A stretch of 39,829 nt of DNA, from the NCBI GenBank assembly GCA_030649775.1, contig JAUSFR010000010.1, positions 1 to 39,829 of the forward strand, in the 5' to 3' direction. This document shows positions 31,107 to 38,122 of the stretch, in pieces. This stretch comes from a bacterium. GTDB taxonomy: Bacteria > Patescibacteriota > Minisyncoccia > Phycocordibacterales > UBA10002. Within the stretch, counting starts at the first letter, position 1. Each line of letters begins with the position of its first letter. Position numbers and translations under genes: made by a program. Below the pieces are notes generated by a model. That model was not told the DNA's origin and did not search any database. It saw nothing but the letters and a program-made list of their open reading frames with translations.

Positions 31107-33632
31107 ATGCCCAAATCTCCCGAAGGTTTCCAACCTCTAAGAAAACCCGTTGAGCTAAAAGTTGAAGTTGAGGGTAACCCCCTTGCCGGTCATATAGAAG
31201 TGGAAGGTGGGGAGGTACTCAATGTTAAAGGAGTCGACGAACTCGCTGAAGTTCCTCAAGCTCTTCCCCCAAAGCCCCCTGTTCTTGAAGAAAAAACGAC
31301 TACAAGAAAACGCACTCCTCGGAAGCCTGTTGCTCTTGTCGCAAAGCAAGAAGCTCCTTCCTCGCCTGAAGCTGAAACTGCCTTGCCAGAGGCCCCACTC
31401 TCTCCCGAAGTGTCGGCGGAGCTGGAACGTATTATTCTGCAAACAAAAAAGGTGAAGAGATTTGAAAGGGTCGCGAACGGAAAGAAGACAAGCCCGAGCG
31501 GTGAGAACGTGGCGAAAGGTATCCGTGATCGTGTCGCAGAGTTTAATGGCGAAGGGTTCAAGCGATTACTGAAGATAAAGCAGGTAGAAAAGGTTAATGA
31601 GGCAATAGAGATGTTATGCACCGACCCTAACCTTCGGAATGATTTGCGTTATCTCTTTGGCGAGATGGGACTTTTGGAAAAGATTGACCGTCCCTCAAGG
31701 CAGGAACCGGTTCCCGAATCCCCCGGCGAATCCCCCGTACCGTTTTCGCAGGGGCTACACAGGATTCTGAATGAAGTACAAAGGAATCCGGAAAAATATA
31801 AAAGGGAAACGTCGAGCGGTACGATAATGGAGGTTGCAGGTAAAGATTTGGTACCGGTCATTCGTGCCATGGCGGACGCCTTTAGTCTGGCGGAGTTCAA
31901 GAAGTTACCACAGGCAGAGCAGTCCGAGAAAATAACCGCCTCCATAAACCGCATGTCCACAGACCCGGAACTTCGCCAGAAACTTAGTGATCTTTTTCTC
32001 TCCGAATCATCTAAAAGGGGCAAAATGAGACCCAATGTTAAACAGGTACCCGTGGCTTCACCCCCTCCCACTTCCGGACCCTTGGAACACGATAGGATTA
32101 TGGCCGGACTTTCTTCTTCGCCGAGCGCGAAGAAAAGTGGAGAGCCTTCGTCGTACGGCCGTATGATGGCGGGAGAATCTGTTCCGACGGGAACAGGCGT
32201 TTCTGCGGGTGCGAAGCCGATGAATGAGGCCGAACTGCTGATTGAAAATTTGCGGAGACATAAGGCCGAAAAGGCTGTCACCGCGCAAGAATCGTCGGCG
32301 CAAGCACAAGGCGCAGGTGTAGAAGTACCCTTGAGGAAAAAACGCTGGTACGAATGGTTTCAGAAACCCGCCACGGTGACTGAAGTTCCCCCTTCCGCTC
32401 CTGTAGCTACTCCCGCGACATCGGAAACCCGTCATGTACCGCAACCCACCAAAGAGCAAGATAAAGAGGACCTTGATAAACTCTTAGCACTCCCAAACGA
32501 ACCTAAAACCAAGCCGAGTGCTCCACCGCTAGAAACTCCGCCTTCCTCCGCGACAATCACCGAAGCTCCGTTACCGAACCGCTCTGAAGGAGGCGCTCGC
32601 GTAGAAGAGTTTGGCGGATTTAAGGTGGGGGAGAGCGTCCAGCTTATAGACCTACAAGGGCAGGATGGGTGGTCGAAGCCTCGGTCTATCGTATCGTTTG
32701 AAGACCGTTCTTCCTCTCCCGATTATCCGATATTTTTCGCCAAGTTTGACGATGGGCAGATAGTCAATATAACGAGTTTACGAAAAGTGGATTTACAGAA
32801 CGTGCCGTGGTCGGAAAAAAGCGAATCAAAGACGGAGGATGCGCTCCCCAAAGCTGAAACCGGAGGAGCAATACCTCCTCCACCACCGCTGGAGAGTCCC
32901 GAAGCTAAAATTAAGAGAGAGACGGAATCTTCAGCGACTATCCAAGAAAGAGCGGAAGCCCCTGCTGGTTTGACGCATGAAAAAATAGAATCTCTTACAT
33001 TTGAGAATCTCTTTGAACTAAATAACGATAATTTGGCACAAATAGTCCGGAGTTCGGATGCAAATTTTTTTGGATGGGGGGTCCTCATGAAGGGTATGCC
33101 GGATGCGTTTGTAGAGCGCGTTAGAAACACCCGAGAGAACAAAGAGGACTTTGATTCTGGATTTGTGCGAGGCACGAGTGATGCCGAAGAGCTTGAACTA
33201 AGAAAGAAGTTCGCGTTGGAAAGTGCCAAAGAAAAGCTTATAAGAGCACTTTCCGAAAATTTACCTCAATCTTCGGGGACGGAGGATATGACGTCAAAAG
33301 TAGCTTCTGAAACACCCGCAGGCTTGACCCATGAAAAGATAGTGGGTCTTACCTTTGAAGGGCTTTTTGATTTGGATGATGAGATGTTGCTACGAGTTGT
33401 TAAGGAGGATTCATATACCGCTTTGGTCTGGGGATGCGCCATGCAAGGCCTCCCCGAAGCTTTGGTGGAAAGGGTTCGCACCGCACTAGAAAACTGCAAA
33501 AACCCTGTGCTTAAAGGCACAGTCCAATTTGATAGATGGCTACATGACCCTCAACCCGCAGATGAGATTGAGAAAGACCGCAAAAGACTTCTTGAACGTA
33601 GCAAAGCAATATTGTTAAAATCAATTTCATAA
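31107..33632 (+). CDS. 841-aa Pro/Glu/Ser-rich protein with internal repeats and two C-terminal FliG-C/MgtE-N-like domains
   Basis: ATG at 31107 (track: TTG 31098). Repeats at 32961-33260 and 33314-33629: PAGLTHEKI..LTFE.LF.L.(D/N)(D/N)..L...V......... L(K/Q)G.P(D/E)A.VERVR, like FliG FEDL..LDD..IQ..LREV....LA.ALKGA.EEL.EKI. An earlier repeat pair has ..TDP(N/E)LR..L..LF. A small beta-rich block reads FKVGESVQLIDLQGQDGW..IFFAKFDDGQIVNI. Confidence 0.65.
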   Translation: MPKSPEGFQPLRKPVELKVEVEGNPLAGHIEVEGGEVLNVKGVDELAEVPQALPPKPPVLEEKTTTRKRTPRKPVALVAKQEAPSSPEAETALPEAPLSPEVSAELERIILQTKKVKRFERVANGKKTSPSGENVAKGIRDRVAEFNGEGFKRLLKIKQVEKVNEAIEMLCTDPNLRNDLRYLFGEMGLLEKIDRPSRQEPVPESPGESPVPFSQGLHRILNEVQRNPEKYKRETSSGTIMEVAGKDLVPVIRAMADAFSLAEFKKLPQAEQSEKITASINRMSTDPELRQKLSDLFLSESSKRGKMRPNVKQVPVASPPPTSGPLEHDRIMAGLSSSPSAKKSGEPSSYGRMMAGESVPTGTGVSAGAKPMNEAELLIENLRRHKAEKAVTAQESSAQAQGAGVEVPLRKKRWYEWFQKPATVTEVPPSAPVATPATSETRHVPQPTKEQDKEDLDKLLALPNEPKTKPSAPPLETPPSSATITEAPLPNRSEGGARVEEFGGFKVGESVQLIDLQGQDGWSKPRSIVSFEDRSSSPDYPIFFAKFDDGQIVNITSLRKVDLQNVPWSEKSESKTEDALPKAETGGAIPPPPPLESPEAKIKRETESSATIQERAEAPAGLTHEKIESLTFENLFELNNDNLAQIVRSSDANFFGWGVLMKGMPDAFVERVRNTRENKEDFDSGFVRGTSDAEELELRKKFALESAKEKLIRALSENLPQSSGTEDMTSKVASETPAGLTHEKIVGLTFEGLFDLDDEMLLRVVKEDSYTALVWGCAMQGLPEALVERVRTALENCKNPVLKGTVQFDRWLHDPQPADEIEKDRKRLLERSKAILLKSIS

Positions 33633-38122: not shown

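Follow-up and report, generated by a model that had tools for sequence, protein, structure and literature searches.

Why would a bacterium keep, behind its ribosomal protein genes, an ATPase that resembles the coupling proteins of conjugation systems? The question is raised by a stretch of 39,829 nucleotides (contig JAUSFR010000010.1 of assembly GCA_030649775.1; Patescibacteriota, Minisyncoccia, Phycocordibacterales, UBA10002), referred to as the window throughout. Here, a gene for a 917-aa ATPase (D) lies downstream of a ribosomal superoperon and is preceded by genes for an 841-aa protein (A), a 421-aa protein (B) and a 96-aa protein (C). Patescibacteria are believed to subsist on host cells. 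An earlier note, made from the sequence of the window, had placed the four co-directional open reading frames (ORFs) correctly, at sizes of 841, 421, 96 and 917 aa, and had seen in them and a fifth neighbour the operon of a self-contained machine. The idea of a new self-contained machine built around a FliG-like rotor is not borne out. Instead, D is a highly conserved chromosomal core gene of Paceibacteria-type Patescibacteria, situated in a housekeeping slot, and its product is modelled as a soluble hybrid of VirB4- and VirD4-type domains. With moderate confidence, we read it as a separately encoded, hexameric coupling or recruiting ATPase of a type IV secretion system (T4SS) located elsewhere in the genome, with an N-domain that would serve for docking and with B and C as putative adaptors or cargo.

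A core gene in a fixed chromosomal slot

Homologues of D number more than 2,000, the best 120 of which are 59-92% identical over the full length, and the gene is present in at least 595 species (one genome per species), all of them Patescibacteria of the Parcubacteria/Paceibacteria type. ORFs were called in 83 D loci and labelled by jackhmmer and BLAST clustering, with related loci numbered L001-L089. Roughly half of those loci whose flanks are long enough show the order secY-adk-map-ATPase-ndk. Of 61 such loci, 32 have map no more than 9 kb before D; the two genes directly adjoin (gap of at most 108 bp) in 13 loci. On the other side, ndk follows D at a distance of up to 4 kb in 30 of 56 loci. 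The frame is completed by secY, adk, a DUF2238 gene and an RNase J-like gene, the conserved order across the class being map-D-ndk-DUF2238-RNase J-like, and of the genes in the block only D is conserved over the 83 loci. Position and orientation of D recur in hundreds of species and its identity across relatives tracks that of ndk, which argues for vertical inheritance and not for a recent insertion.

The window itself is a patescibacterial ribosomal superoperon of Taylorbacteria/Paceibacteria-like type. It runs from rpsL-rpsG to rplO, continues with secY and adk, and closes with a gene of the amino-acid-kinase family followed by map. The earlier note had the block of A to D replace the infA-rpmJ-rpsM continuation directly after map. 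This continuation is indeed absent from the window, and infA, rpmJ, rpsM and rpsK, from the cluster that ends with rpoA, are found neither here nor within 10 kb of D in about 89 related loci. Given that the map/D/ndk frame is conserved across these loci, the missing infA-rpsM continuation is a trait of the class and not of this genome. Nor does the block begin directly after map, as a 540-aa gene on the minus strand, which the note had passed over, intervenes. The window differs from its relatives mainly by an insertion of 6.2 kb between map and D, which in this lineage comprises the 540-aa gene, A and the B-C pair. D and its fixed neighbours lie as follows.

28339-29112, plus strand: map (methionine aminopeptidase), last gene of the superoperon (Pfam Peptidase_M24, E 1.6e-44)
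35320-35355, plus strand: terminator-like hairpin and T-run between C and D (hairpin scan)
35353-35361, plus strand: TGaTATTAT, an extended -10 box whose end is 7 nt ahead of the D start codon (sequence)
35369-38122, plus strand: ATPase D, whole gene of 917 aa (ORF call)
35369-36832, plus strand: N-terminal half of D (residues 1-488), DUF8128 (PF26449; AlphaFold/Foldseek)
36833-38122, plus strand: C-terminal half of D, P-loop domain of VirD4/TrwB type (Pfam; Foldseek)
36932-36955, plus strand: Walker A of D, GQTGTGKT (residues 522-529; sequence)
37697-37702, plus strand: Walker B of D, D777-E778 (sequence)
38240-38845, plus strand: ndk (Pfam NDK, E 6.6e-36)
39166-39591, plus strand: DUF2238-like membrane protein, strongly hydrophobic and homologous to PF09997-annotated genes of L001 and L002

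Judged from its upstream sequence, D appears to be an independent transcription unit with a promoter of its own. The hairpin between C and D, at 35320-35345, has 11 pairs and the tail TGTTTTGTGA, and together with an upstream stem it folds at -26 kcal/mol; in the relative L006, the corresponding hairpin has a different stem sequence and the identical T-rich tail TTTTTGTTTTGTG. The internal terminator proposed by the earlier note is thereby borne out as a terminator-like hairpin. A TATAAT-like -10 match of at least five out of six positions that ends 5-12 nt before the ATG of D was detected in 66 of 80 related loci, compared with 5.2% of all ATGs there, and a Shine-Dalgarno-like motif before D in none of the 80. 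This pattern suggests a conserved leaderless D transcript across relatives, and the mRNA of D is probably leaderless. Since D follows a terminator-like hairpin and seems to be transcribed from its own promoter, "operon" is too strong a term for A-B-C-D. In some close relatives, the intergenic region between C and D is enlarged to 0.4-1 kb (L004 6129-7178, L008 9329-10000, L005 9613-9991), carrying a 198-aa minus-strand ORF in L004, so the junction upstream of the D promoter also accepts insertions.

Two halves of the ATPase and their relatives

The C-terminal half of D is matched by the Pfam models TrwB_AAD_bind, TraG-D_C, T4SS-DNA_transf and DUF87 at or marginally above their gathering scores, and Foldseek aligns the model of D to TrwB over 430-460 columns with a target-normalised template modelling (TM) score of 0.63-0.65. 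The first description of the 917-aa protein as a TraD/VirD4-like ATPase therefore stands. Walker A and Walker B residues are invariant among 60 homologues, and in the model a helical insertion (residues ~596-724) lies between the two motifs. The N-terminal half consists of a helical region followed by alpha/beta modules, and PF26449 (DUF8128) is precomputed in this half of every D homologue. No transmembrane segment was predicted in D and no hydrophobic segment in its first 700 residues; the sole 19-residue window above 1.6 in the hydrophobicity scan, at residue 741, is within the ATPase fold.

At the level of structure, the N-terminal half leads to VirB4. The full-length AlphaFold model, built on 60 homologues, has a pLDDT (predicted local distance difference test) of 78, and its best Foldseek matches in the PDB are full-length TrwK/VirB4 structures (E 2e-12, ~900 columns), followed by HerA, Cag-beta, TrwB and DotL. 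Residues 1-488 modelled alone (pLDDT 76, predicted TM score 0.71) gave a list in which the top 11 PDB matches are all TrwK/VirB4 (E 1e-5 to 7e-3, ~400-420 columns) and which drops to unrelated folds below them. A PDB profile search at the sequence level found no match with the N-domain and only marginal TrwB matches with full-length D. Likewise, TIGR00929 (VirB4) reached 24 bits on D against a cut-off of 643 (E 1e-5, fragment only), and the Pfam VirB4 models CagE_TrbE_VirB and AAA_10 gave no match. From the Pfam and Foldseek results for both halves, D is predicted to be a soluble FtsK/HerA-superfamily hybrid, i.e. a VirB4-type N-domain joined to a nucleotide-binding domain of VirD4 type that carries a helical insertion.

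Such a protein resembles two known families without falling into either. With the VirD4/TrwB/TraD coupling proteins (e.g. TrwB of R388, Cag-beta, DotL), D shares the P-loop domain, the Walker A/B motifs and the helical insertion, at only 14-16% identity in structural alignments, whereas ~490 soluble residues stand in place of their N-terminal transmembrane anchor and D adjoins neither a relaxase nor mating-pair-formation genes in this genome. With VirB4/TrwK it has in common the two-domain layout of an N-terminal alpha/beta part and a C-terminal ATPase, ~800-900 residues in length and without a transmembrane segment. The likeness to VirB4 is one of fold, VirB4 being the source of the only significant Foldseek matches of the N-domain, while the ATPase domain of D scores higher with VirD4-type models. 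Moreover, D has no VirB3-, VirB6- or VirB8-type partner at its side; next to it are map, ndk, DUF2238 and proteins that lack transmembrane segments. A role of D in defence was considered and rejected: PADLOC returned a match at the P-loop level to mad8 (E 3e-15, ATPase domain only) and weak ones to HerA and DndH, and it found no defence partner genes beside D in what is a housekeeping context.

A tblastn search of the D family against plasmids yielded 308 records. On Bacillaceae plasmids of Shouchella clausii, Niallia sp. and Bacillus sp. F19, a homologue, with a primase gene on one side and a Replic_Relax relaxase-like gene on the other, aligns with residues 200-910 of D at 24% identity (E 2e-37), spanning both domains. 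In two of the three plasmids, the module goes on with TcpC, TcpE and an AAA_10 VirB4-type ATPase; the module of the third is shorter, with no VirB4-type ATPase annotated within the stretch examined. The plasmid homologues thus stand where the coupling protein is located in Gram-positive conjugation modules of Tcp-like type. In contrast to the chromosomal D, they are carried by mobile elements and placed beside a Replic_Relax gene. The label "orphan" given to D in the earlier note is valid within this window only.

Phages carry relatives as well, namely phrog_5156 (E 3e-87), gp156 of Bacillus phage G (Foldseek E 5e-39 over 827 columns), SPO1 gp27.4 and a homologue in Geobacillus phage GBK2. The latter is gene 32 (L084 5656-8226), which is part of the early region, upstream of recombination and replication genes. 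These Bacillus/Geobacillus phage homologues are full-length or nearly so and include part of DUF8128, and they share with the plasmid proteins, annotated as "DUF87 domain-containing", the lack of the first 140-200 residues, i.e. the helical region of D. The N-domain family as a whole has 968 representatives at 50% clustering, with some shorter forms lacking the first ~140 residues. We know of no experimental studies of the Bacillaceae plasmid DUF87 proteins or of the phage relatives.

A probable coupling role, or possibly a housekeeping task

Secretion machinery for which D could work is widespread in these bacteria. According to a survey from 2025 (PMC12102498), VirB4 occurs in 2,417 of 3,035 Patescibacteria genomes and its clade is nested in the monoderm MPF-FATA type (MPF, mating-pair formation), the bona fide VirB4 of the lineage is a different gene, near dnaA, and the T4SS is essential for the host-dependent lifestyle in the sole lineage tested experimentally. 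The same source counts 5,713 VirD4-type homologues of type IV coupling proteins (T4CPs) in 2,918 of the 3,035 genomes, only 148 of them near virB4. The family of D is among these. KKR53198.1, a member of the D family (P0089) with 61% identity to D over the full length, is entered in Table S3 of the survey as a T4CP (CONJScan profile t4cp1, 86% coverage) that is not near virB4, in a genome that also has PrgI/VirB3, TrsD and VirB2 homologues (PMC12102498). The D family is therefore already catalogued, both as a T4CP homologue and as Pfam DUF8128. The survey remarks that such genes occur almost everywhere and mostly at a distance from virB4; it pools about two T4CP hits per genome and does not separate families, and its available parts give no description of a VirB4-like N-domain, a missing anchor, the map-ndk slot, a leaderless promoter or the B-C partners (PMC12102498).

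Against this background, we favour the reading that D is the coupling or substrate-recruiting ATPase of a monoderm-type (MPF-FATA-like) T4SS encoded elsewhere in the genome. D would assemble as a hexameric ring and dock, perhaps on VirB4, via its VirB4-like N-domain instead of a transmembrane segment, and the small helical C and the coiled-coil B might act as lineage-restricted adaptors or cargo. Several points weigh against it. The docking and the part assigned to B and C are steps that we infer. There is no T4SS gene in the window, where VirB4, relaxase, pilin and integrase found no match among the proteins scanned with Pfam and NCBIfam; relaxase and mating-pair-formation genes were likewise not seen among the called genes of the related loci examined. 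The transmembrane anchor typical of canonical T4CPs is missing, and the curated NCBIfam T4CP models (TraD, VirD4-like and TrbC were tested) score 34-48 bits on D against cut-offs of 250-800, the best being TIGR03743 with 47.8 bits against 366. The alignments behind the structural models are shallow (at least 49-59% identity), and TM-scores over the whole chain are low at 0.25, as the domain orientation of D differs from that of the matched structures. Further, T4CP homologues are commoner than VirB4 (96% vs 80% of genomes), two D-bearing drafts, GW2011_GWC2_48_17 and GWA1_40_21, were scored VirB4-negative, and the t4cp homologue of S. epibionticum is non-essential for epibiotic growth, for which its T4SS genes are essential; on the last ground, the authors of the survey themselves raised an exaptation of the T4CP homologue (PMC12102498).

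As the main rival explanation, D could be an exapted housekeeping translocase, a T4CP-like protein no longer in the service of secretion that moves DNA or protein in some basic process of the cytoplasm, for instance chromosome handling, DNA uptake or division. We regard this as possible but rather unlikely. Exaptation would explain the fixation of D among housekeeping genes, with the map-ndk slot and the predicted leaderless promoter maintained across the class, and it agrees with the very high conservation (~60% identity over at least 595 species) and the absence of a membrane anchor. The surplus of T4CP homologues over VirB4, the dispensable t4cp of S. epibionticum and the two VirB4-negative drafts would fit as well (PMC12102498). 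However, GWA1_40_21 retains PrgI, TrsD and VirB2 despite its score (PMC12102498), which may thus reflect assembly gaps. The closest relatives outside the Candidate Phyla Radiation with a readable context are in conjugation modules, by a relaxase-like gene, the VirB4-like N-domain hints at attachment to an assembly of T4SS type, and no neighbour of D indicates a specific housekeeping process. If the ATPase has been exapted nonetheless, it would represent a conserved core function in very small genomes.

In either case, the "orphan" T4CP homologue carried by nearly all members of one large class appears to be a distinct architectural variant, anchorless and composed of a VirB4-like N-domain and a VirD4-like ATPase. 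Its gene has a fixed place next to the ribosomal superoperon, and in some lineages a small helical protein dedicated to it and large, variable proteins are encoded on its flanks. We know of no earlier description of the VirB4-like N-domain of D, of its lack of an anchor, of its fixed locus, of its predicted leaderless promoter or of its partnership with B and C.

The insert before the ATPase and the ribosomal region

The genes between map and D are arranged as follows.

29258-30880, minus strand: 540-aa gene, specific to the lineage (ORF call)
31107-33632, plus strand: gene A, modular protein of 841 aa (ORF call)
32955-33254, plus strand: FliG_C-like repeat 1 of A (residues 617-716; Pfam and profile evidence)
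33312-33629, plus strand: FliG_C-like repeat 2 of A (residues 736-841; Pfam and profile evidence)
33708-34973, plus strand: gene B, coiled-coil protein of 421 aa (ORF call)
34978-35268, plus strand: gene C, all-helical protein of 96 aa, starting 4 nt past B (ORF call)

The linkage of B and C to D is tight but patchy. Across the 83 D loci, the counts are 15 for B, 12 for C and 11 for the two together, with further C copies on the jackhmmer list; the pair is linked to D in about one fifth of species and absent from ~80% of D loci. Where both are found, C follows B, and every local copy of C is in an ATPase locus beside B; the pair is located upstream of D in most loci and downstream in L013, L033 and L035. 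In three of three independent context look-ups, a DUF8128 gene starts 23-36 nt downstream of C, and a large B-like ORF of 516-1,878 aa precedes C. Both proteins had been characterised correctly from sequence alone, B as a coiled coil, which is all that its PDB profile search matched, and C as helical. B has small conserved N- and C-terminal regions and is collinear with a 450-aa protein of L002 (E 1e-4). The C family comprises only 26 clusters in a profile search of a large protein collection, and residues 8-36 of C match PPR/TPR-type families, with a TPR/PPR-like helical hairpin at the N-terminus. C is a candidate adaptor or chaperone of the ATPase. No transmembrane segment was predicted in A, B or C.

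The map-ATPase slot varies in other relatives, too. In L030, L028, L034/L088 and L089 it is filled by giant ORFs (1,645-2,186 aa) that lack Pfam domains, and in L014/L087 a giant ORF is located just upstream of map instead. Two ORFs upstream of the ATPase, those of L034 (1,645 aa) and L008 (1,217 aa), were detected as B-like.

Protein A is fast-evolving, modular and lineage-restricted, and it is not a conserved partner of the ATPase. Most of it is of low complexity, the N-terminal half being rich in Pro, Glu and Lys, and neither a whole-protein Pfam scan nor a PDB sequence search found a match. Among the ORFs of related loci, jackhmmer recovered homologues from no locus other than L004 and L006, apart from a fragment in L008. 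A 242-aa protein of L002 and an 820-aa protein of L005 occupy the same position and cluster with A orthologues by BLASTP, sharing modules other than those of A itself; the L002 protein has a module in common with the L004 and L006 orthologues and no BLASTP similarity to A. The domain content of A hence varies even among close relatives. Its two repeats are 43% identical to each other, and their only Pfam match is FliG_C, below threshold (E 0.11). Searched against the PDB, a five-sequence profile of the repeat domain returned eight entries for FliG (E 0.02-0.6), those at E 0.02-0.06 being 1qc7, 3hjl, 4fhr, 1lkv and 3ajc, and it aligns at the start of FliG_C in T. maritima FliG. The L004 orthologue bears, at another place in its sequence, a FliG_C domain that is significant (E 8e-10), so the FliG-C-like domains named in the earlier note are probably right as remote homology. 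Unlike FliG, A has no FliG_N or FliG_M domain according to Pfam, and no flagellar or stator genes were seen among the proteins scanned; the comparison here is with helical modules of the FliG C-terminal domain/MgtE N-domain type, and A itself is restricted to few relatives.

The 540-aa gene is similarly confined. It has no match in Pfam, NCBIfam, PADLOC or PHROG, and its homologues occur only in L002/L003, L004 and L005, amounting to four distinct loci, all of close relatives. A terminator-like hairpin on the minus strand (29201-29232) lies beyond it.

What could such a changeable insert mean? One proposal is that the map-ATPase slot is a hotspot for T4SS cargo and adaptors, where C would be a chaperone or adaptor docking on the ATPase, and B, the giant B-like proteins (1,200-1,900 aa) and A would be effectors secreted to host cells. 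We consider this doubtful. The candidate effectors next to C are large, fast-evolving, signal-less proteins, and if the idea is true, they would offer a first genomic handle on the effectors of Paceibacteria episymbionts.

That A to D and the fifth neighbour together form a new machine, with a FliG-like rotor or adaptor, coiled coils and a hexameric translocase, is very unlikely. The genes are co-directional and closely spaced, the FliG_C-like domains are probably real in A and its orthologues, and B and C always adjoin D where present. Yet over the 83 loci only D is conserved, compared with 3 loci for A, 4 distinct loci for the 540-aa gene and the partial occurrence of B and C; map abuts D with nothing between them in 13 loci, the domain content of A differs between close relatives, and D seems to have its own promoter behind a terminator-like hairpin. 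It is the failure of synteny for A that makes us rate this explanation so low: neighbourhood conservation extends to B and C, which recur beside D, and stops short of A and the 540-aa gene, which are confined to the closest relatives. Profile searches for a T4SS module point in two directions, with A, B and C assigned to none and the family of D in the coupling-protein position of Gram-positive modules.

That the locus is the relic of a conjugative element or prophage integrated after map is extremely improbable, for although D homologues occur in Bacillus/Geobacillus phages (phrog_5156, phage G gp156, SPO1 gp27.4) and on Gram-positive plasmids, the position and orientation of D recur in hundreds of species with an identity tracking ndk, and the window has no integrase or relaxase in the proteins scanned, no tRNA genes, no flanking repeats and no shift in GC (guanine plus cytosine) content; except for the repeats, the earlier note had already remarked on this. 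A mobile island was also ruled out by the GC content, which is flat across the window (0.47-0.54), by the absence of meaningful flanking repeats around the block and by the absence of tRNA genes from the window; no Rfam family matched anywhere in it.

Several minor features of the ribosomal region deserve mention. The amino-acid-kinase-family gene between adk and map (27577-28257), possibly UMP-kinase-like, holds this position in some relatives only, and homologues of it were seen in 12 loci. Inside the spc ribosomal operon, on the minus strand, a 251-aa ORF (21365-22120) with an N-terminal hydrophobic helix and no Pfam match fills a gap of ~1.1 kb between rplE, which ends at 21235, and a 61-aa S14 gene (22344-22529), while in L001 the L5 and S8 genes are just 237 bp apart. 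In the str operon, two extra ORFs of 125 aa (8427-8804) and 155 aa (8851-9318) are located between rpsG (7632-8102) and fusA (9421-11574), an insertion unusual for this operon; the first has a weak Asp_protease_2 match only. The genes rpoB and rpoC, usually expected upstream of rpsL, are not in the window. Just upstream of rpsL, a 1,063-aa protein (3508-6699) with PG_binding_1, PKD, Kre9/KNH-like Ig and TIG domains is encoded, which is probably a cell-surface protein.

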